A stretch of 64,000 bases of DNA, from positions 64,001 to 128,000 of IMG/VR virus record IMGVR_UViG_3300031555_003522. One strand, written 5' to 3'. This DNA comes from a virus. Its lineage: Duplodnaviria > Caudoviricetes. How positions within the stretch are numbered: the stretch's first letter is position 1; the number at the start of each line of letters is the position of its first letter. Position numbers and translations under genes: made by a program. This document shows positions 3,064-45,526 of this stretch, one piece after another. The notes beneath the pieces were generated by a model that was given only the letters and a program-made list of their open reading frames with translations, had not been told where the DNA came from and searched no databases.

Positions 3064-4149
3064 TTATTCCTCCTTATCAAAATGATGAATAATCTCATCC
3101 ACAAATTTAAATAATGTATTTTTTAACCATGCTTGATCAGCTTCAGGAACTTTATCCTGAATATTAATGCTTTTAGGAATCTTAGGCCCTATTCTCAATG
3201 ATGGATTTTCATCCATAAACATTACTTCAAGATTACGCTTCTTCTGAGATGCTTTTGCAAGAATTACACTTACAACTTCAGGCTTTGTTTCTACTATATT
3301 AATCATAATATACGGATAGGAGTAATTCTCAACTTCTTTTAACGATGTAGTATTGTTATTAGTCCTAATTGTATCTATCATTTCTTTATGCCCAGAACAA
3401 CAATATTCGGTAGCAATACCAAGAAGATTAAGTTTAATTATCCTATCTACAAAATCTTCATCACACTCGAACATGCTCTGGTTGCAACTAGTACATATAG
3501 GCGCAAATGTAGTTCGTGTTCTTTCAATATCAAAGTTTTCAATATCAGAAGTAATACTAAATGTGGTTTCGCTCTTTACATTGAAAGATACTCTACCAAA
3601 GCAGGATGGACAAATAAATGTAGTCTTTACATGATCTATTTCAGAAATCTTATCATGATATAAGAAATTATTTCTATTCATATTTGCAGGAATACCGCCT
3701 TGCCAGTGCGATTGTATAGGATCTTCGTCATTTTTATCTAAAGGTAACATAACTGGTCCTATTGAATAACCTCTAGATTTTCTGTTTTTATAGTAATCTT
3801 CTATAGTAATACCATCCATTGTATTATAAATAGATAATACAACCATTTCTATGAATCCAAGATAATAATCACATTTAACAGTATCTACAGATACAACTGT
3901 TACATCTATACTATCGGGTGCATATGGATGCATGGTTACTTCCACCATCTTTTTTCCGGTAATATATGTGTAGTCCGATTTCCACACTTCTTCAATTACA
4001 TGCATTATTCCAACTTGGGTTCTAGCACTATTTGATAAATCAAGACTAAATCTATTGCTATCAGGATAAAATGAAACCCCAATACCAATAAAATTTAGTT
4101 GATCTTTTATAGACTCTAATCTATCTTTTAAAATTTCTGCTTTACTCAT
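3064..4149 (-). CDS. Zn-ribbon family protein with N-terminal extension
   Basis: CPSC...CTSC, plus CCSGH motif. Confidence 0.7.
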   Translation of the reverse strand: MSKAEILKDRLESIKDQLNFIGIGVSFYPDSNRFSLDLSNSARTQVGIMHVIEEVWKSDYTYITGKKMVEVTMHPYAPDSIDVTVVSVDTVKCDYYLGFIEMVVLSIYNTMDGITIEDYYKNRKSRGYSIGPVMLPLDKNDEDPIQSHWQGGIPANMNRNNFLYHDKISEIDHVKTTFICPSCFGRVSFNVKSETTFSITSDIENFDIERTRTTFAPICTSCNQSMFECDEDFVDRIIKLNLLGIATEYCCSGHKEMIDTIRTNNNTTSLKEVENYSYPYIMINIVETKPEVVSVILAKASQKKRNLEVMFMDENPSLRIGPKIPKSINIQDKVPEADQAWLKNTLFKFVDEIIHHFDKEE

Positions 4150-4173
4150 ATTAATCACCTTTAATATATTTTA

Positions 4174-4812
4174 TTAGATACCCCTCTCCTCTATATTTTC
4201 AATAAAATGCTTGAGGAATCTAAGTAGACGATCATCAGATATTTTACAATTATAATCGAGTTTTTCATCTCCGCCAATATCTTCCTTGTTAAGGAATCCA
4301 AATCTAGAGTTATAAGATAATGGATGATAGAATGCACTAGAAATTGTAATACCACCAAGATCATCATTATTTTCTTCTTGGATTCTCTCCAAATTAAATT
4401 CTTCACTTTCACTACAAGTAAGGACGAAATTTGTAGTATGATAGAAATGCCAATTGGGCTCAAAAGATATAGTAATATTTGCACCACTACAATAAGTATC
4501 AAATTGTGTAATACTTGAATTATTAGTAATATAATTTGGTGTATAAAATGCTTTATTTACTTCTAATACTTTAACACCTAGAGTTCTAAGTTTTTCACAA
4601 GTTTCTACAAACTTAACATCCATATCTATCATTCTAGTACCGCATAAACAATTTGATCTACACCCTATAGAAATATTAAGAGTACTATAATCTATAGCAA
4701 CTTCTGTAGTAACTGTAGAAGGTCTATTTACTTTAGTAAATATTTTGAGTTCTTCTTTAGCACCACATTTAGGGCACCACATAATAATTGTATGAGTTTT
4801 ATAATTTTGCAT
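4174..4812 (-). CDS. Zn-ribbon family protein
   Basis: CPKCG...CLCG. Confidence 0.7.
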   Translation of the reverse strand: MQNYKTHTIIMWCPKCGAKEELKIFTKVNRPSTVTTEVAIDYSTLNISIGCRSNCLCGTRMIDMDVKFVETCEKLRTLGVKVLEVNKAFYTPNYITNNSSITQFDTYCSGANITISFEPNWHFYHTTNFVLTCSESEEFNLERIQEENNDDLGGITISSAFYHPLSYNSRFGFLNKEDIGGDEKLDYNCKISDDRLLRFLKHFIENIEERGI

Positions 4813-4878
4813 ATATTTTACATATCCTTTTCTTTAATTACTGTATTGTAAAAATACTATTCAATTGCTAATTTGCTC

Positions 4879-5641
4879 TTAATCAAAGATGATAGGCTCT
4901 ATCATATTCTCAGGATCGTAGCCCATTGCTAATAAAGTAAGATATCGATCTATCTGATAGTCTGAGGCATAGTTAACATGTTTCATATGACCAGTTATAG
5001 GAGGGATATGCCTTAGCGTAATCTCTCCAGTTAAATTATCTCTATTTCTGAGTAAGTACACATTATCTTCGTTACAATCATATAGGGCAAAATAATCTAT
5101 TTCATCTACGTTATATACTGTTCTTTTTGGAATAGCTTTACCATGATCAAAAACATTTCCTTTGGATACTAACTGGAACAGTGTACCACCATTATCCACT
5201 CCAACACATCTAGAAGAAGATTTAACTTGTATTCTTTGCAGTTTTCCATCAAATTCAGCAACCAAATCTACCTTAGTATTATCAAGAATTGGCGTGTATA
5301 CCTGTATGCCATGTTCTGCAAATTTTCTTTATGGTAGCAACCTCACCTATTTTACCGACAAGTCCAGTATTATTTGTGCTTTTATCCACAGCCCTTGTAT
5401 CTGGTCTATACAATTCACATTGTATTGGATTTCTTTTTCTATCCTCACTAATCTTATTTCTATTTTCTAAAGACTTAGATCTGTTTTCTTCGGAATTTAA
5501 AGCCTGTATTTGATTCTGCCTTCCCTGAAATGTAACGTATTCATTTGAATACTTTCTAGCACATGTAGCTGAACAAAATCTTCCACTTCCATATGTGCCA
5601 TCATGCGGTTTTCTGCAATATTCACATATAATATCATTCAT
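4879..5641 (-). pseudogene. PD-(D/E)XK homing-type endonuclease with N-terminal Zn finger, split by a single-base frameshift near 5323
   Basis: CEYC...FCSATC finger; skipping one A in AAG AAA A TTT GCA joins the two ORFs into G.IGE...FAEHGIQVYTPILDNTKVDLVAEFDGKLQRIQVKS (PDDEXK_5-like). Confidence 0.75.
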
Positions 5642-5748: not shown

Positions 5749-5825
5749 GGGCCCATCGCCTAGCTGGTTAAGGCCTTCTGCTCATAACAGAACCACCGCA
5801 AGTTCGAGTCTTGCTGGGCCCACCA
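5749..5825 (+). tRNA. tRNA with CAT anticodon, probably tRNA-Ile2 (lysidine, reads AUA)
   Basis: Acceptor GGGCCCA/TGGGCCC, anticodon arm TTCTG-CTCATAA-CAGAA, TTCGAGT T-loop, encoded CCA. C4:G69 and C5:G68 pairs are typical TilS determinants. Confidence 0.9.
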
Positions 5826-5852: not shown

Positions 5853-6035
5853 GTGGTAATACTTTTGTCCTAGACGCCCCGCGTCATCACCTGCCCAAGA
5901 TTTAATAATTTGAGCTTTTGATTGTTTATTGAGTTTTGTGATCACCTCCTATGTATCATTAAAAATTTCTTTAACAATATTTCATATATAAAAGACAAAT
6001 TCTAAATCAACTTCCATCTCTCAAAGTATTACCAC
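5853..6035 (+). ncRNA. Candidate structured RNA in tRNA trailer, with anti-SD loop
   Basis: 13-bp closing stem GTGGTAATACTTT (5853-65)/AAAGTATTACCAC (6023-35); internal hairpin with CACCTCCT in its loop; terminator follows. Confidence 0.5.
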
Positions 6036-6042
6036 AAAAACG

Positions 6043-6084
6043 AATAAGCACGGATGCTCTACCATCCGTGCTTATTTTTTTTTT
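6043..6084. terminator. Intrinsic terminator
   Basis: aataagcacggatg...catccgtgcttatt + T tract. Confidence 0.8.
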
Positions 6085-6692
6085 CATAATCCATATCTGG
6101 AAAGATGCTCCAATATATCAAATGCAAACTCAAGCATATGCTCTTTCAATATAGCATAAGATTCTACATCTTTTAATGTGTAGGATTTTTTATTTTCTAA
6201 AGCTTCTTTAATTTTTGGTCTAAATTCCACAGTACCAGCATGTGTGGTTATCATATCACCATATTTATCATGATATTCCATCTCAATAAGTGTACGAGAT
6301 AAAAACTTTCTTTTCTCGTATCCTATATCTATGTAGAAGGATATAGAAGGAAATACGATAATAGGCTTGCTCAAGTCCATAGATCCATCATCATTTAAAC
6401 TACCTATAGAACCTACATTCACTATCATAGGAAATCCATATGAATAAGATCTTGTAAATAGCTTAATTGCTTCATTATCTGTGATATATTTCATCTCTTG
6501 ATCACAGAGATTGCATGTTGCTCTTATCATACAGTCAGGAAAGTTGAAAGTAGTTGTATCAAGAATAGAATTTATAGCTGAGATTTTGGCAAAATTTGAT
6601 ATTCGTGCTTCATACTTAAGTTCTTTACCACAACATGGACATACTAAATGTGCATCCATGACCGCAGTACTTTCAATACTCTTGTTAGCCAT
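6084..6692 (-). CDS. Zn-ribbon family protein
   Basis: CPCCG...CNLC. Confidence 0.7.
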   Translation of the reverse strand: MANKSIESTAVMDAHLVCPCCGKELKYEARISNFAKISAINSILDTTTFNFPDCMIRATCNLCDQEMKYITDNEAIKLFTRSYSYGFPMIVNVGSIGSLNDDGSMDLSKPIIVFPSISFYIDIGYEKRKFLSRTLIEMEYHDKYGDMITTHAGTVEFRPKIKEALENKKSYTLKDVESYAILKEHMLEFAFDILEHLSRYGL

Positions 6693-9380: not shown

Positions 9381-9938
9381 TTATCTACTATAATACTTTA
9401 TTCTATTTTTAAGACGATTTGCCTCTTCACGATATTTTGTTTTAAGCTCTTTATCATCAGTTTTGTCTGCTTTATCTCTAAGAAGCTTAACCATATCTTC
9501 TGCTTCGGATTTACATTTCTTAAATTCTGCTGTATCTATAGCTAGTCTAAGAAGTCTATCTATAAGTTTAGTAATAATGAAACCGATCATCCAAAGCAGC
9601 CAACCCTTAATACTAAAAGGAGCGAATGGGGCAATAGCATTAATATATACAAAAAAGTTTCCAATTGTTTCTACAACATCAATACCAATGCTAAGAATAT
9701 CTAAAATAATCTGAATTGCTCTTTTACCGAAATTCATATATTTATTTAGATCTTTAGATAATTCTTCATCAGAAAGATCTACAGAATCTTTGACTTTTTG
9801 CATGGCCTTCTTTAGACCTCTATAGTCATTACCCTCTTGAAGGAAATTATTTAGAAACCAATCAAACTTGGCTCCTTCATTGAGAGTGATTATATTATCA
9901 TTAATAAATTCTACTTCATTAAAAATACCATAATCCAT
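9381..9938 (-). CDS. Putative virion protein with hydrophobic hairpin, paralog of 18758-19429
   Basis: Shared EGAKFD...EG.DY.GLKK...KR..Q core; promoter 9966-9977 (-). Confidence 0.75.
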   Translation of the reverse strand: MDYGIFNEVEFINDNIITLNEGAKFDWFLNNFLQEGNDYRGLKKAMQKVKDSVDLSDEELSKDLNKYMNFGKRAIQIILDILSIGIDVVETIGNFFVYINAIAPFAPFSIKGWLLWMIGFIITKLIDRLLRLAIDTAEFKKCKSEAEDMVKLLRDKADKTDDKELKTKYREEANRLKNRIKYYSR

Positions 9939-31004: not shown

Positions 31005-34000
31005 ATGGTGGCGAGATTCTTGAACTTAGAAAGAAGAGCAAAATATTCAGGTCAAGGATCTTCGGTTGTTAAATCAAATAAACGACTTGATATAAACCTT
31101 GATCTGCATACGTTAGAAATAATGTGTAAATGTCTGGTTACAGATAGCCAGAATATAAGACGTGGACAATTAATTAATTTAAGAAATTTAATTTATCTGA
31201 TAAATCCAGATAATTATATAAATGATGCCGAAAAGAATAAAAGAATCGATTTTATTAAGAAAGGTCTCGAGGGGCGACTCGAGTTCAATCTTACAGATCC
31301 CTTTATGATATTGTCTCATATAAATGGAGGCATACTGGATACAGATATAGTAAATCTAGAAGAATTTGCTGGACTTACTGGAGCTGAAATAAACTGGATG
31401 AATAATATGGTTTCGGAAGCTCTTAAGTTTTCTCATGTTTATTCTAGCGTAGATATGCTATTAGATATCTGTACCAGAATAAAGACATCTGATTATGGAA
31501 CAAAAGCTGCTATAGTTGCTGAATTTGAGCAAGCAATAAATGCTATTCAGAATAATTTTAGAAGATGTAGAAACCAGAATCAGACTCAAGAAATGTTCAG
31601 TTTACGTGATGGGTATTTTGAGAATGTGATGTATGACACATACTCAGCTCTTAGTAGTCCTAGACGTAAGCTTATGACTGGTATGCAAGGTATGAATGAA
31701 CTTCTCGGTGGTGGATATGAGAATGGACGTTGTTATGTCTATTTCGGTCTGCCTGGTGTAACCTAACGGTAATCACAGCTTGTATAGTAATATGCAAGTT
31801 CCCCGGGTTAACTGCTGGCAATCCCTAAAGCCTTAAGCACTACAACGTGATCTGAAAAGATGAGCGTGAATGTTACGAAAGTAGAAAAAAGCTTAAGGAT
31901 GGACTATGGTTAAATCCTAAGGTCTAACTCGACAAATGGGTCTTCAGCAGCCAATCACTTGTAAAATAGTGAAGGTTCAACGACTATCCCCTGGCAGGGG
32001 AGTAAAACCGCAAGCTAATGGCGGAAGAAAAATCCGGCTCCTTTATAAAGTCACCCATTTATAAAGGATGAATATATAGTCTATACACTATTGAAAAATA
32101 GTGGTACCCTATGGTGACAGAAGGTACTCTTATAAAGTTGCGTTTATAAGAAACTATCAATATCTAACGTAATTTAATCAATATATTCTCTCTAACCTTT
32201 CATTAATTCTATATGATGAAAGGAGGTGTAAAACAGATGGCTCAAAAATGTAAAGCCAATTCTGATAATTTGCGCGGTCATAAAGTTAGAATATATCCTA
32301 CTGAAGAGCAAAAGGATAAAATACTATCTTTTATAGATTCATATAGAGCTATTTATAATATAGCTATTGGGTCTCAGATAGATTATTATCGTTCTGGCGG
32401 AATATTTATTACATTTAATCAAATGTGTAAGAAATTTGCCGATATGAGAAATAATAATGAGAATTTCAAATGGCTAAATAATATGTCTATAGGAATTATA
32501 AGAGAAGCTTTAATAGATGCTGATGTAGCATTTACAAAATTCTTTGCTAAGATTAATAGATTTCCTAAATTTAAGTCTAAGAAAAGATCTAAAAAATCAT
32601 TTGGAACTAGATCCGATAGGTGTCATATCGATGGAAGAAATATTTATATATCAGGAGTAGGTTTGGTTGATGCTAAAGATCATCATATTCCAGAAGGGGT
32701 TAGAATGTATAAAACCAGAATAACTTACGACGGATATGATAAATTTTGGTTTTCATGTACAACCGAAAAAGATATGGAATTTCTTCCTATTGAAGGATTA
32801 GGTAAGCCTATAGGTGTTGATGTGGGTATAAGACACATGATAACAACATCGGATGGCGAAGTTTATGAACTATCAAATTTTTCGAAATTAAACAAAAGAC
32901 TTAAACAAAAAACGCGAAGAGCTATGCGCTCTATGAGGAAATATATAAATCAATCAAAACGTACGAAAATCAAGTATGAGGATATACCAAAATCTAAGAA
33001 TCACTATAAACGAATGAAAGAATGGGTTAAGATTAGTAATCGTATAGAGAATAAAAAATCTTATGATACTAATGTGGCTACTAGACGTATAATAGATAAA
33101 CATCCTTCTGCTATTGTAATAGAGGATTTGTGTTTATCTAAAATGCGAAAAAGAAATTGGATGAAGAAATTCGTACCACAAATAGTATTTAGAGATATAC
33201 ACAGACAATTGGAATATAAGGCTGCTGAATTAGGTATACCTGTAATAAAAGCAGATCGATTATACCCATCATCACAATTGTGTAGTAATTGCGGTTCAAT
33301 ACGTAAACTTAATTCTTCCGTTTATAAATGTAAAGTTTGTGGATTACGGATAGATCGTGATCTGAATGCTGCTATAAATCTTAGAAATTTGGCATATAAA
33401 AATGCATATGTTTAGTTTGCATATTACCACTTTCGGTGGATAGTGATATAATGTAAAAAGAATATATGTACCGTGCACTATACACGGGAGTTAAAGCCTT
33501 TGGAGAGCCTCGTACCACGAAATTTATCTAAATTTTGTGGCCGACATGTACTCGCGATATATGTTGGAGGGGTTCTGTGAATTAGGAAATCATACTTAAC
33601 ACGTACAATAATTACGTTAGAAGTTGATATATAGAAGGCAAGTCGAGCACAATGATGAATATCTTATATCAGTTAAAGAAGTATAATCGTGACTATAAAA
33701 CAAAAGACCCGACGAAGAGACCATGTATCGTATTATTGACAATGGAGAATACAGTTATAGAGTCTATTGATCGACTCTTTAATATGGCTACAGGTCATAA
33801 GAGGATGACGGATTACTCTCCTGAGGGAGCAATGAGAATGTTCAGAGAAGAGGGTGAGCTATATCTAACGGATGAATCTCCGATAGATATCATCATCAAA
33901 TTTGAACCTTCTAATTCTGTGGACACAAGTTATCTATATACTCTTACCGAAGATCTTGAAGATCAAGGTATGGAAGTAATAGCACTATTCCAGGATTATA

Positions 34001-34632
34001 TTGGCCGTATTCGTTCAACTGAACGGCTCCAAGAAACTCGTTTGGAATATGGTGCAATTGTTGATGAGTTTAAAACATTTGCTGAGATTAAAGATATTCC
34101 TGTAATAACTGCTGCTCAGCTAAACAGAGATGCTTCTAAGCATATAGATGAAGGTCGTAAAGCCAGTAAGTCCGATCTTGTTAGACTTATTGGTAGATCT
34201 AATATTAGTGAGTCTATGTTGATCCTGAACAATATCGATGCAGGATTCCTGATAGCTCCAGAAACTACTCAAACAAATGAAAGATATCTTGGTGTACAAA
34301 GAATAAAAATTAGATATGATGCTGGAGATAGAGAATTTGTATACTTGCCATTTGTCGGCGATACACTAAAGCTAGAGGAAGATTTTGGAAGGGTTGCCGT
34401 ATTTAAGACAACTATGAAAAATGATCCCTTTGGTGGACAAATTGGCACAAATAAATCTCAGTATCAAACTAATACAATTATGGATCTTGGCCAGGTTATG
34501 AGATCTTCCGGAAATGAGAATAATATGTTCTCGGCCAAGGTCATGAGTGGATCTATGGATACTTTAGCAAATAAAAGTTCCATGGTATTCACAGAACTTG
34601 TTGAACCAATTATATTCGATGATGTTGTATAA
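31005..34632 (+). CDS. dnaB: DnaB-like replicative helicase, spliced (exon1 31005-31758, exon2 33635-34632; about 583 aa)
   Basis: Joining the exons restores Walker A GLPG-EGKS; downstream LTMEN, QDYIG and AAQLNR DnaB motifs. Confidence 0.9.
32237..33415 (+). CDS. tnpB: TnpB RNA-guided endonuclease (IS200/IS605/IS607 OrfB)
   Basis: RIYPTEEQ HTH, FPKFKSK, GVDVGI, IEDL, SSQLCSNCG..CKVCG, DRDLNAAINL; RuvC D-E-D triad intact. Confidence 0.95.
   Translation: MAQKCKANSDNLRGHKVRIYPTEEQKDKILSFIDSYRAIYNIAIGSQIDYYRSGGIFITFNQMCKKFADMRNNNENFKWLNNMSIGIIREALIDADVAFTKFFAKINRFPKFKSKKRSKKSFGTRSDRCHIDGRNIYISGVGLVDAKDHHIPEGVRMYKTRITYDGYDKFWFSCTTEKDMEFLPIEGLGKPIGVDVGIRHMITTSDGEVYELSNFSKLNKRLKQKTRRAMRSMRKYINQSKRTKIKYEDIPKSKNHYKRMKEWVKISNRIENKKSYDTNVATRRIIDKHPSAIVIEDLCLSKMRKRNWMKKFVPQIVFRDIHRQLEYKAAELGIPVIKADRLYPSSQLCSNCGSIRKLNSSVYKCKVCGLRIDRDLNAAINLRNLAYKNAYV
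33416..33634 (+). ncRNA. Putative omegaRNA scaffold downstream of tnpB
   Basis: Stacked hairpins and the TGTACCG..CGGGAGTTAAAGCCTTTGGAG...GTGAATTAGGAA pattern typical of tnpB right ends. Confidence 0.65.
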
Positions 34633-41352: not shown

Positions 41353-44300
41353 ATGGCTAAGCCTACTAAGAATAATGAAGCCACAAATTTTGAAGAAAGC
41401 ATTCGTAGTTATGGTGATAAGATCGAACACATTGATACCTTTGTAGAAGCTGTGCGCCGATTCCCGGGTATGTATATCGGTGCAAAAAGTGATACTGGTT
41501 GGAAGGCATGTGGTCGAGAAATTTTCCAGAATGCTGTTGATGAGATTATCCGTGTAGAATCTCCTTGTCACTACGTAAAGATGAGTTTTGATGAAAGAAC
41601 TCAAGCTGTGGTAGTAGAAGATACTGGACGCGGTATTCCTCATGGTAAAATTATTGAAATCTATGCTAGTCAGCATACTAGTTCTAACTATTCCAAGAAA
41701 CCCGGTGAGTATACATCTGGTGTTCATGGTGTTGGCTCTGGTGTTGCTATGGCATTATCAAAATCTTTTGATATCTATTCGTACGTGCTTGGTGAAGCTA
41801 GGCATGTACATTTTGATTCTGGTGTATTATGGCCTGAAGGGGAAAAGGTTATTCCTTGTCCTGAGGGCAGACAGGGAACTACTGTTGTCATGACACCAGA
41901 CCTTGATGTATTAGACGAAGTAAATCTTACTTGCGAAGATTTCCTTGATCTAGTATTGAAGGTATATCCTCTTGTCAATGTCGGTGATAGAATAGATTTT
42001 ACCGGTATTGATAGAGATGGTAAAATCAAGTATCAGGAAGAATTAGTGAATAAGGATGGTATTATATCATCTCTTATGGTTAGAACTCAAGCTCCTCTTG
42101 TAACACCAGTACAGTTTAAAGATGATACTGGTTACATGAAAGCTGAGATCGCCTTCACTTATGACTCAAGTGATTTAACGTCTGTAGAAGATATTGTAAG
42201 TTATGCAAACTTTACACCTACAACTGGCGGCACGCACGTTGCTGGTTTTATGGATGGTGTGTGTAACTTCTTCCGAAACTACATGAACAAGATTTATCTT
42301 GGTGAGAAGTCTAAAGTTTCTGTGGTAAATAATGATGTCAAGACAGGTCTTAAAGTCATTATTGCAGCTGCTCATCTGAATCCTGTATTTGCGGGTCAGT
42401 TTAAGGGCATTCTGTCAAATGAAGATATGTATAAATATATCAAAGATCTGACTATGAAATCTTTGGAAGAATGGTCTAAGACGAGTCCTGGTGATTTGCA
42501 AAAGATTTGCAAGTTCATCAAGGAGATTGCTGAGATACGAATGAAGAGTGATGATAGTAAGATCAAGCTATCTAATAACTATGAAGCGAGTTCTCTTACT
42601 GGTAAGCCAAAGAAATATGTCCCACCCTCTGGACATAAAAATCTGGAGTTGATTATTGTAGAGGGTGATTCTGCATTAGGTTCTACTAAGAATAGTAGAG
42701 ATACTGCAACGCAAGGCGTATTCCCTGAAGTGGACGGGGCATTGACTAGTAATAGTCAATCGTAAACTTCCTTAATTGCTGGGATGCTAAGTATTATATG
42801 AAAGCCTTAGAAACTTTTATATAATATATGCTAATCAGCAGCCAAGTAGAAATCGGAAGTGATGCACTATGTATAATCCAATTATCTTTAATAATGAAGA
42901 GTTTAAAGATATAGTAATTCCAAATGTTAAACCGATATATTCTGTAAGCAATTATGGTACTATAATTAATAAAATAACCGGTGAGCAGATTAGCATGCAA
43001 ATTACAAGTGATGGATATTTAAGAGTGGGTTTATCGTGTTTAAATGGTAATACCAAACACTTTCTTGTCCATAGATTAGTATTAATGGCATTTTGTCCAA
43101 TACCTAATCCTGAATCGTTCGAGGGAAATCATCTTAAAGGAATAAAGATAGATAATAGGGTAGAGGAATTAGAGTGGACAACCACGTTAGAGAATAATCA
43201 TCATTCTTTTGATACGGGGTTGAATAATAATATACGAGAAAATCATGCAAAAGCTAAACTCACCAATGATCAAGTTCATTTAATATGTCAATGCTTAGAA
43301 AAAGGAATGACTATTAAAGAGATAGAACCTTTGATTATAGATACAGGATGTATAGATCTTGGAAGAAATATAAGAGCTATACGAGAAAGAAAAGCATGGG
43401 TTACTATAAGTAAGGATTATTCGTTTAGTAGCAGAAACAATAGAGATATGTTTTGTGATGATGAAGTTAGAATTATCTGTAAAATGATAGAAGCAGATGC
43501 CGGATATAAGAATATTTTAATATCATTAGGAATAGATATTTCTACTTTATCTTCAAAAGAGCTAGCAAATTATTGTGATATAATAAGTAATATTAGAGTG
43601 GGTAAATATTACTCAGATATATCTAAGGATTTTGATTTTTCAAAATCAAAGTTATTTAGACATGACCAAACTTTAGATAATGATAAAATAACTAAAGTGT
43701 GCAAATGTTTAGAATCTGGTATGAGTAGTACTGAGATACTAAATAAGCTTAATATATCAAAAGAATCCGTAGGTTATGAGAAATATGATAAAAGTCGACG
43801 GATTATAAATAAAATTAGAGCTAGAAAAGCATTCATTTCAATCTCTAAAGATTATGATTTCTAAAGGTTCAACGACTATCGAAAGGTATCTTATGATGAA
43901 CCGAGTAGAGTAGAACTCAAGCGAGTTTCGAAATGGGAAGGATCCATATAAATGGATCGTGATATAGTCTCATCTGTATGGAAACATACAGCAGTTCATA
44001 AGAGAACGGTATAGAAGTAGCGACTCTATATGAAGATATTGATCCGTGGTAAGTTGCCTAATGCATTTAAAACATCTAAAACATCTTTCTTAGCAAATCA
44101 AGAAATTGCTTCCATTATCACAATTATTGGTTGTGGATATGGTAAGAATTTTGATATAACTAAGTGTAAATTCGATAAGATAATTTTCTTAGCAGATGCG
44201 GATCCGGATAAGGTTGTGAGCTGTCCGGCTTAATAGAAATATTAAGAAAATAACTCTCTTAATTGCTGGAATATCTTAAAAATTGAGACAATCAGCAGCG

Positions 44301-45526
44301 AAGCCTCTTATATGAGGAACGTTCAACGACTAGTCGAAAGACGTAGGGTTCAAGCGAGCTCGAAATGGAGAGCCCTTAACAGGCAATGCTGAAGGTGAAG
44401 ATATAGTCTAACCTACATGGTGACATGTAGCAGTTCATAAGAGAACGGTATAAGTTTAGCGAACTTATATGAATATTAGGGTTCACACATTAATACACTT
44501 CTGCTTAGATTCTTTATCATGTATCTGCCAGAATTGATTACAGCTGGTAGGGTTTATCGTGCTGTTCCTCCTCTGTTTGGTATTAGAGGTAAGGGCAATA
44601 GTATGAAATACTTTACTACAAAGCTTGATTTCACTAAATATGTCCAGAATTTGTTTGCTCACAATCATGTGCTTACAGATATTAATGGGCGTAGACTTAC
44701 TAGCAATGAAACTACAAATTTATTCTTTAAGAATATAGATTATAAAGATCAAATTGAATCTATTGCAAATACTTTTGCGGTAGATCCTGATCTATTAGAA
44801 TCTGTATTATATCATCTCGCAAGATTTGTTGAGATTGGTAATCCTGAAGCTGTCGCCAGTATGGCTGCAAGGGCTAAAGCCGTAAAGGCTACTAGTAAGA
44901 AAGCAGAAAGTGCGACAAAAAAGAAAACAGAGGGTGCTAGTAAGGCAAAGAAGCAGACCTCTAAAAAAGAAGAAGATATTTCTGATGATGGAGATTTTAA
45001 TATAGAAGATATTCCTATCACAGAAACATCTGTATCTGCATCTGTAGCTTATTACATTAAACCTACGTTTAATGCAAAAGCTCTGAGAACAGAACTGAAG
45101 AAGTTATACAGATTCGTTGATATCGTTGAAGATAATGGTGTCATTAGAATTGAAGGACTTGTCAATAGTAGATATCAATATGTATTTATTAATGATAAAT
45201 TTATAGCTTCTTGTATTCCCCTTATCGAGACCATTAAGAATAATACTGACTTGTATTATCGTGTAAATGATGAAGCTGTTAGTTTGTATTCCTTAATGTG
45301 TCAATTCGATAATATGATCCCATCCGGCCTGATTAGATATAAGGGCTTGGGCGAACAGGATCCAGATCAATTGGCTGTATCTGCACTTCATCCCAAGGGT
45401 GATAGAACTCTTATTAGATATACTATTGAGAGCGCTAAAGAAGAAATCGAAAGTCTTAGACGAATCGATTCTAGTATGGCATCCTTGCTTAGAGAAGTTA
45501 AAATTACTAAAGCAGAGATTGAATAA
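41353..45526 (+). CDS. gyrB: DNA gyrase/topoisomerase II subunit B, spliced (exons 41353-42726, 44042-44209, 44480-45526; about 862 aa)
   Basis: RRFPGMYIG, EIFQNAVDE, GVHGVG, VEGDSA; splicing restores FP|IRGK and DADPD|GSHI; RYKGLGE. Confidence 0.95.
42727..44041 (+). mobile_element. Group I intron 1 in gyrB with HNH homing endonuclease
   Basis: 5' exon ends in U paired to GGGG guide; AATTGCTGG, ATCAGCAGCC, GGTTCAACGACTA, GATATAGTC; ends in G. Confidence 0.92.
42869..43864 (+). CDS. NUMOD4-HNH homing endonuclease with three C-terminal repeats
   Basis: EEFKDI..YSVSNYG, VHRLV, NH..G.K.DNRVEELEWTT..EN..H; 3 x IC..LE.G...ISKD(Y/F).F. Confidence 0.9.
   Translation: MYNPIIFNNEEFKDIVIPNVKPIYSVSNYGTIINKITGEQISMQITSDGYLRVGLSCLNGNTKHFLVHRLVLMAFCPIPNPESFEGNHLKGIKIDNRVEELEWTTTLENNHHSFDTGLNNNIRENHAKAKLTNDQVHLICQCLEKGMTIKEIEPLIIDTGCIDLGRNIRAIRERKAWVTISKDYSFSSRNNRDMFCDDEVRIICKMIEADAGYKNILISLGIDISTLSSKELANYCDIISNIRVGKYYSDISKDFDFSKSKLFRHDQTLDNDKITKVCKCLESGMSSTEILNKLNISKESVGYEKYDKSRRIINKIRARKAFISISKDYDF
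44210..44479 (+). mobile_element. Group I intron 2 in gyrB (270 nt, ORF-less)
   Basis: P1 CCGGAU/GUCCGG; AATTGCTGG, ATCAGCAGC, GTTCAACGACTA, GATATAGTCT; ends in G before GGT TCA CAC. Confidence 0.92.

Follow-up and report, generated by a model that had tools for sequence, protein, structure and literature searches.

The window analyzed here is a stretch of 64,000 nucleotides from a jumbo phage whose virus record holds 207,861 bp (34% GC) and is 84% complete. The DnaB and DNA polymerase genes of this phage are divergent, group I introns are many, and the stretch is present at high share in sequencing runs of animal feces metagenomes. The probable host is a spore-forming Firmicute, to judge from a Spo0A-like gene carried by L207, a close relative. 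The window also contains a tRNA gene with a CAT anticodon (5749-5822), and its gyrB gene is split by two canonical group I introns with U-ending exons, of which the first (42727-44041) carries a NUMOD4/HNH-like ORF (42869-43864) and the second (44210-44479) is ORF-less. The spliced gyrB product has 862 amino acids, and in L207 the gene is uninterrupted.

A dnaB gene in the window is interrupted by an element that combines a predicted group I intron, a tnpB gene and an omegaRNA scaffold (Table 1). When the element is removed, a single open DnaB frame of 583 amino acids and a stop is obtained and the FGLPG-EGKS motif is restored, with the 3' end of exon 1 (GGTG) supplying the Walker A codons F-G-L-P-G and the first base of the Glu codon. 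Among 120 intact homologues this motif is FGLPGEGK[ST] in 117 and FALPGEGKS in three, which agrees with the initial annotation that the intron splits the invariant Walker A of DnaB. The intron starts with T31759 and ends with G33634, and the 5' splice site follows G31758, whereas the 5' exon of a group I intron canonically ends in U, a departure that the initial annotation had passed over. The G was assigned as the last exon base since this is the sole join that retains both the frame and the terminal G; each U-ending join either loses the frame or lacks the terminal G. It is paired with C in 10/10 related introns.

Table 1. Features of the dnaB locus (window coordinates) and insertion sites of related elements (window or contig handles).
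Feature	Position or carrier	Strand	Basis
dnaB exon 1 (divergent DnaB-like helicase)	31005..31758	+	Pfam divDNAB (weak), in-frame join to exon 2, intact homologues
Predicted TAM GGTG (family consensus GGNG)	31755..31758	+	GGNG 9/9; function by analogy with ISFba1/CboTnpB
Whole element (group I intron, tnpB, omegaRNA), 1,876 nt	31759..33634	+	Boundaries from exon join and relatives
IA2-type ribozyme core (predicted)	31759..32149	+	Covariation; Rfam blind to core
P2	31779-31798	+	Intron alignment
P3	31803-31809/32031-32037	+	Intron alignment, compensatory changes
P4	31813-31817/31945-31949	+	Intron alignment
P7	31982-31986/32077-32081	+	Intron alignment, compensatory changes
P7.1	31987-32001	+	Intron alignment, compensatory changes
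P7.2	32008-32024	+	Intron alignment, compensatory changes
P8	32039-32068	+	Intron alignment
P9-P9.2	32086-32149	+	Intron alignment
AU-rich long-range stem (group B "IR stem"), 5' arm, 20 bp	32155..32174	+	90% complementary to 33610-33629
tnpB, 392 aa	32237..33415	+	ATG after RBS; Pfam; structure match; conservation
omegaRNA scaffold	33467..33634	+	Alignment; pseudoknot 100% paired
omegaRNA nexus stem	33471-33475/33483-33487	+	Alignment
omegaRNA pseudoknot	33478-33482 with last five intron bases 33630-33634	+	3/5 pairs with double-sided changes
IR stem, 3' arm (overlaps omegaRNA 3' end)	33610..33629	+	Complementarity to 5' arm
dnaB exon 2	33635..34632	+	Pfam divDNAB and DnaB_C; in-frame join
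Predicted guide, first ~20 nt of exon 2 (codons E-G-K-S-S-T-M)	33635..33654	+	Pseudoknot end, PMC11061315
Site: dnaB Walker A	window, L009		
Site: terminase C-terminus	L011, L196		
Site: RNAP beta-prime-like DYDG-D motif	L201, L203		Label by motif recognition
Site: RNAP beta G-DK	L012		
Site: RNAP beta G-VYGREN	L205		
Site: DNA polymerase motif B YG-A	L204		
Site: second DNA polymerase site	L199		

The full group I core that had been read from the sequence is supported by covariation. In an alignment of 10 related introns, P1 to P9.2 with P7.1 and P7.2 show 97.8% of cells paired and double-sided changes in 36 of the 74 pairs, including P1, P3 and P7, with compensatory changes in P6 as well. 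None of 500 shuffles gave pairing as high and slid controls reached 35-47%, a comparison that is biased toward the unslid structure because the helices were read from the window sequence. Neither the intron nor the omegaRNA was detected by Rfam, whether at gathering thresholds or at E-values relaxed to E<=5. At the level of sequence the element is confirmed as an IA2-like group I intron with a G-C-type P1, for which self-splicing is predicted. The middle pair of P1 tracks the end of exon 1 among the related elements (T-A, C-G, A-T), so that each intron is fitted to its own site, and in three relatives the first intron base is A, G or C, not U. The tree of intron cores gave no resolved branching. 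Downstream of the core the IR stem brackets tnpB and the omegaRNA, and the interval between P9.2 and the tnpB start (<90 nt) contains no tnpA remnant.

The tnpB gene most likely starts at 32237, following a ribosome binding site at 32220-32227; the start chosen by the ORF caller (32213) gives 400 amino acids. Pfam finds the HTH_OrfB_IS605 and Cas12f1-like_TNB domains, with OrfB_IS605 below the cut-off, and the best solved-structure match is PDB 8IAZ (E 3.5e-34), the code cited in the paper on the ISFba1 IS607 TnpB (PMC11061315). The protein falls in a clade of about 100 protein clusters with 41-60% identity. Its RuvC residues D203, E304 and D383 (400-aa numbering) and four Zn cysteines are kept without exception across the clade (101/101), although intact TnpBs are favoured here because similarity to an intact query defined the clade. 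In five sister pairs dN/dS is 0.08-0.19, with synonymous sites near saturation. These data are in line with the intact tnpB and D-E-D triad seen initially, and the intron-encoded nuclease is intact and under purifying selection. A promoter scan gave results at chance level.

It was also proposed that an omegaRNA-like end runs straight into exon 2. We found that the nexus loop pairs with the last 5 intron nucleotides in 10/10 family members and so closes on the 3' splice site. In CboIStron the scaffold stops at the splice site, the omegaRNA pseudoknot is needed for cleavage and not for splicing, and TnpB together with the omegaRNA structure represses splicing. Since the pseudoknot closes on the last intron bases, as the scaffold end does in CboIStron, the beginning of exon 2 is the predicted guide, and the covariation of the pseudoknot backs this part of the initial annotation. 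The end of exon 1, which had been put forward as the TAM, is GGNG in 9/9 elements and resembles the AGGAG TAM of ISFba1 TnpB, which fits xGGNG (PMC11061315); its last three bases also pair with intron positions 31774-31776 as P1. The ISFba1 TnpB cuts at 16 and 22 nt, and it loses activity when a single mismatch falls at guide positions 1-13 (PMC11061315).

The element ends in TAG here and in TGG in three others, in place of CGG, and in the present copy the partner strand of the pseudoknot has changed to match. In addition, the core dinucleotides of the left and right ends are mismatched in 9/9 complete elements. In CboIStron the CGG end is required for efficient excision by TnpA, and mismatched core dinucleotides abolish excision. 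By analogy with this one characterised system, the compensated TAG end and the mismatched dinucleotides suggest that the nuclease RNA was kept by selection while the transposase signal was dropped. As noted initially there is no sign of a TnpA: neither PF00239 (resolvase) nor PF01797 (Y1 transposase) was found in the 84% complete genome, in which positive controls were detected, and the nine clade loci contain no TnpA motif. A search for other copies, as had been advised, showed that the element occurs once in the genome, and no self-target (GGNG followed by 12 nt, with <=2 mismatches) is present there.

From its sequence features, the element is best described as derived from group B (IS607-type) IStrons, on the basis of the G-ending 5' exon, the 20-bp AU-rich IR stem, the 8IAZ match and the serine TnpA found near distant TnpBs. 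A 5' exon ending in G is a documented exception of these IStrons (PMC4227781; PMC13565253). In 160 more distant TnpB loci a regular-expression search found a serine TnpA motif in 29 and a tyrosine one in 4, and two other viral contigs (L052 and L054) hold complete elements with intron, TnpA(S) and TnpB. The group B traits found here are an IA2 intron 5' of an IS607-type tnpB, an omegaRNA whose end coincides with the 3' splice site, the G-ending 5' exon and the long AU-rich IR stem. Other group B traits are missing: a GG-ending target (TG here) and a CGG terminus (TAG here), with the mismatch in 9/9, a tnpA(S) or its remnant, and similar copies scattered over unrelated sites. We therefore file the element as a group B variant and not as a standard member. 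It should be noted that tnpA(S) is often missing in known group B members, and that CsISt1 also deviates from the GG/CGG ends yet retains matching AG ends.

Nine clade members besides the window were traced to DNA, eight of them seen whole. The traced elements measure 1.81-1.88 kb (1,813-1,842 nt in the relatives) and lie in frame and in sense inside essential phage genes; the labels of RNAP beta-prime and some of the polymerases come from motif recognition, with no Pfam hit. The exact nucleotide is common to three of five sister TnpB pairs, among them L011/L196 (terminase) and L201/L203 (DYDG-D). The other two have switched site, in each case remaining in essential genes. For P0021/P0025 and P0029/P0058 the expectation of a common site in all sister TnpBs failed. 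Changes of site were seen only between elements that are 65-78% identical in TnpB, and identical TnpBs are always at a single locus. Scans of viral and metagenome contigs for TnpB relatives gave only generic TnpBs (27-37%), and five related phage records with an empty dnaB contain no match to the TnpB alignment.

At dnaB, the same intron at the same site, which it had been advised to look for in relatives, was found in two further alleles. L009 is occupied at the same nucleotide as the window, with DnaB 73% and TnpB 59-60% identical, and in L231, a third dnaB lineage whose exon 1 is 54% identical, an intron of this type occupies the same base, although the contig ends before the cargo. Monophyly of the three intron-bearing dnaB alleles was rejected (AU p about 1e-49), and two of the three have near-identical intact sisters; the long-branched rows L005 and L004, probably an effect of cutting, were set aside in this tree. 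The intron site is thus fixed, patchy among relatives and incongruent with the dnaB tree, a pattern that fits repeated gain or repeated loss. The claim that the element behaves as homing introns do is supported by this same-site occupancy of non-monophyletic dnaB lineages, and weakened by the two of five sister pairs that sit in different genes.

Several further introns were observed around these elements. An ORF-less intron of the same G-ending type lies at the terminase ERNG-G-GF site of the window genome, outside the window (G000:C1 179735-179345, minus strand); this site is occupied in L196 and apparently also in L174, L176 and L194. The terminase intron may be a relic without cargo, or it may serve the cassette as a landing pad. 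ORF-less siblings were also found in L012 (~6034-6479, RNAP beta RFG-DMET) and L011 (~1820-2200, terminase KLDG-A), where they share genes with TnpB-bearing copies. Distant TnpBs (31-37%) are present in introns of the G-ending type as well, in L128 (3455-5381, interrupting RNAP beta at RFG-GKG) and L015 (~3500-5500), and the intron-dwelling habit of TnpB may extend beyond the clade. Micro-exons of about a dozen bases separate a canonical intron from the TnpB intron in the DNA polymerase motif B of L204 (~4540-4555) and the RNAP catalytic motif of L203 (~9530-9544). Tad2-like arrays and one Tad8 anti-defence-type gene lie beside the RNAP gene in L201 (6557-7020, 15328-15567) and L203 (5214-6751). 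One viral contig has two adjacent intron and TnpB elements with no TnpA (L182, 564-2430 and ~3200-4950) together with the complete TnpA-bearing IStron L052.

One possible option is that the element is an ordinary non-autonomous group B IStron, moved in trans by an IS607 TnpA of the host or phage, in which the sole function of TnpB is to bring the element back once it has been excised, and the conserved-motif sites are surviving harmless insertions. The G-ending 5' exon, the IR stem and the IS607-type TnpB are group B hallmarks, TnpA-less IStrons are common, complete elements exist in viral contigs L052 and L054, and sisters at 65-78% TnpB identity did change sites. Yet there is one copy per genome, identical TnpBs keep to a single locus, and the target ends in NG, not GG, in 9/9 elements with mismatched dinucleotides, the CGG being lost here with compensation in the pseudoknot. 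Elements whose TnpBs have diverged by 40% moreover occupy the same nucleotide, in dnaB genes of unrelated background. We consider this option unlikely. Some mobilisation by TnpA in trans may nevertheless occur, as two of five sister pairs changed site and the genome is 84% complete.

Another question is what the intron-less alleles look like, as it was proposed that TnpB would cut the intron-less dnaB of relatives. The closest empty alleles (L207-L210) share the synteny and a DnaB of 95% identity, and the 30 nt upstream of the site are identical or nearly so, GGTG included. They differ from the guide at positions 2, 5, 8, 11-14 and 17 (8/17), seed included and all synonymous, which speaks against the proposal for these relatives; given the loss of ISFba1 activity with single mismatches at 1-13, the known close intron-less relatives are predicted to be resistant. 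Nowhere else in the gene is there a run of synonymous differences as long as that of the six guide codons; the background is 0.32 per codon. In two further empty alleles (X8/X9, from runs of other studies) the flanks are 1.7% diverged, yet 14 of 31 nt differ across the site (Fisher p 7e-16), with 11/11 comparable codons and no residue changed. The border of the recoded block lies between +17 and about +26, where two Met codons mask the exact edge, and it spans the 16/22-nt cut sites of ISFba1. The window and L009 alleles, by contrast with their 73% protein identity, share an identical 20-nt patch. No guide-matching empty allele was found among those read as DNA, all of which have seed mismatches, and most intact homologues were seen as protein only. 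A single exact empty-site match in the viral contigs (L206) lies in a GC-rich gene that is unrelated and shows no similarity to DnaB.

The recoding suggests either escape or a co-conversion tract reaching through exon 2 as far as the cut. A neutral contribution could come from recombination being suppressed next to a large insertion. A similar short run, with five consecutive synonymous codon changes relative to L207, is seen at the gyrB site of the HNH-type intron. In the other sites pooled, the excess in the guide is modest (0.62 against 0.48), with rows that are not independent. Pairing of exon 2 in P10 was considered as a source of the recoding and gave an inconsistent signal.

A different explanation, to which we give very little weight, is that TnpB was retained while homing has ceased. 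An old vertical insertion would have been lost repeatedly, the local divergence would come from suppressed recombination or from splicing constraints on exon 2, and TnpB may serve some other purpose, for example RNA-guided binding or the control of splicing. An old insertion that was repeatedly and precisely lost would fit the patchy distribution as well, the alleles read as DNA include no matching empty one, the gyrB intron site is recoded too, and in CboIStron splicing is repressed by TnpB and the omegaRNA structure. Set against this are the RuvC triad, invariant in 101/101, and the compensatory preservation of a pseudoknot that is needed for cleavage and dispensable for splicing. Nor are the exon-2 codons explained by P10, where no consistent pairing was found, and the change of all 11 comparable X8/X9 codons is more than simple saturation would easily produce (a rough, post hoc estimate of <1%).

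It is also conceivable, if rather improbable, that TnpB is mainly an interference weapon against co-infecting related phages, with homing as a side effect and the recoded empty alleles as the outcome. In favour are a target that is itself an essential catalytic motif, the recoding of the guide stretch in close empty alleles, and the precedent of the protein nuclease gp210 of PhiPA3 (PMC11620839). But the occupancy of the same site in distant dnaB lineages requires transfer of the intron, and the known neighbours appear resistant. Interference and homing are inseparable from sequence alone, and both may be true.

The mechanism that fits our data best, and which we regard as probable, is that of a transposase-independent homing intron, in which TnpB guided by exon 2 serves as the homing endonuclease. 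The structure, boundaries, conservation, site pattern and recoding described above carry this reading, and splicing, TAM recognition, cleavage and gene conversion would be its inferred steps. A group B (IS607-derived) IStron would have lost its serine transposase long ago, leaving TnpB and the omegaRNA to act in homing. The dnaB transcript would have two fates, which are shown for CboIStron and suggested here by the covarying structure: splicing into DnaB mRNA, at the exon-1 G by way of a G-C-type P1 and at the terminal G, or an unspliced 3' junction that gives an omegaRNA with the start of exon 2 as its guide. In co-infection TnpB would cut an intron-less dnaB in which GGNG adjoins an exon-2 start that matches the guide, and the cut would fall about 16-22 nt inside exon 2. 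The allele that carries TnpB would be safe, since the intron separates the TAM from the target. Repair from the intron-bearing genome would copy the intron and, with it, ~17-25 nt at the start of exon 2; the guide would thereby accompany the intron, and a competitor unable to repair would be damaged. Because the target encodes an invariant motif, escape would go through synonymous changes only, and the empty alleles that survive would be those recoded across the guide, which is the pattern observed. On rare arrival at a new GGNG site, such as the observed site changes imply, the guide would switch automatically to whichever exon follows. New sites may be reached through a TnpA that occasionally acts in trans, by reverse splicing, or by the tnpB-omegaRNA cassette moving into ORF-less siblings, which exist at other GGNG sites, including the terminase of the window genome. 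As the guide is a protein-coding exon, a conflict with intron-free phages may be fought in synonymous codons only; this would explain the recoded block, and we put it forward tentatively, as a possibility somewhat short of even chances.

If this mechanism is true, TnpB can be kept as a programmable homing endonuclease with no transposase at all, a route to transposon independence, and phage-phage conflict leaves a readable synonymous footprint. The locus provides a natural test set of an intron-bearing allele, near-identical recoded empty alleles and sisters with their own exon-derived guides, and the clade is a source of compact nucleases, whose motif is predicted to be GGNG, and of omegaRNA ends with naturally occurring compensatory variation.

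In the literature, TnpA-less IStrons and phage IStrons are already known, and experiments in E. coli have shown that a complete IStron can home to an empty site, driven by TnpB. Our literature search found no description of TnpB introns at fixed sites in the core genes of jumbo phages. The initial idea of an RNA-guided homing intron stands as regards the homing-like site pattern. It is not new, as a 2026 review considers intron homing by TnpB-only IStrons implied or likely and awaiting validation (PMC13565253), and the ancestry of the element lies in the group B (IS607-type) IStrons. We compared it with the group B IStrons BcISt1, CboIStron, CsISt1 (ORF B only) and CbISt3/CbISt4 of C. botulinum phages (PMC4227781; 10.1101/2023.11.20.567912; PMC13521648). 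It shares with them the IA2-type core 5' of tnpB, the G-C exon pairing, the IR stem, the pseudoknot on the 3' splice site and a TAM and guide taken from the exons, and phage occurrence and TnpA loss have already been reported for that group. Unlike them, the clade members seen have no tnpA or remnant, a GGNG target and unmatched dinucleotides, with a TAG end here; there is one copy per genome in long-lived fixed sites within essential-gene motifs and not in variable unrelated sites, and the intron start need not be U.

The second group for comparison is that of phage homing group I introns with protein endonucleases, to which the T4 td/I-TevI type belongs. As in these introns, exemplified by PhiPA3 gp210 (PMC11620839) and by the gyrB intron of the window, the site is fixed in the catalytic motif of an essential gene, patchy among relatives and locally recoded in empty alleles. 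In contrast to them, the nuclease is predicted to be RNA-guided, with specificity taken from the host exon, automatic retargeting at a new site and a guide that is predicted to compete with splicing, and the ORF lies in the terminal IR loop instead of P6 or another internal loop. Finally, the IS607 TnpB/RAGATH-18 reRNA systems such as ISFba1 (PMC11061315) have the same D-E-D triad and an AGGAG TAM that fits xGGNG, whereas they are plain IS elements with no intron, and Rfam detects no RNA family in the right end of the present element.
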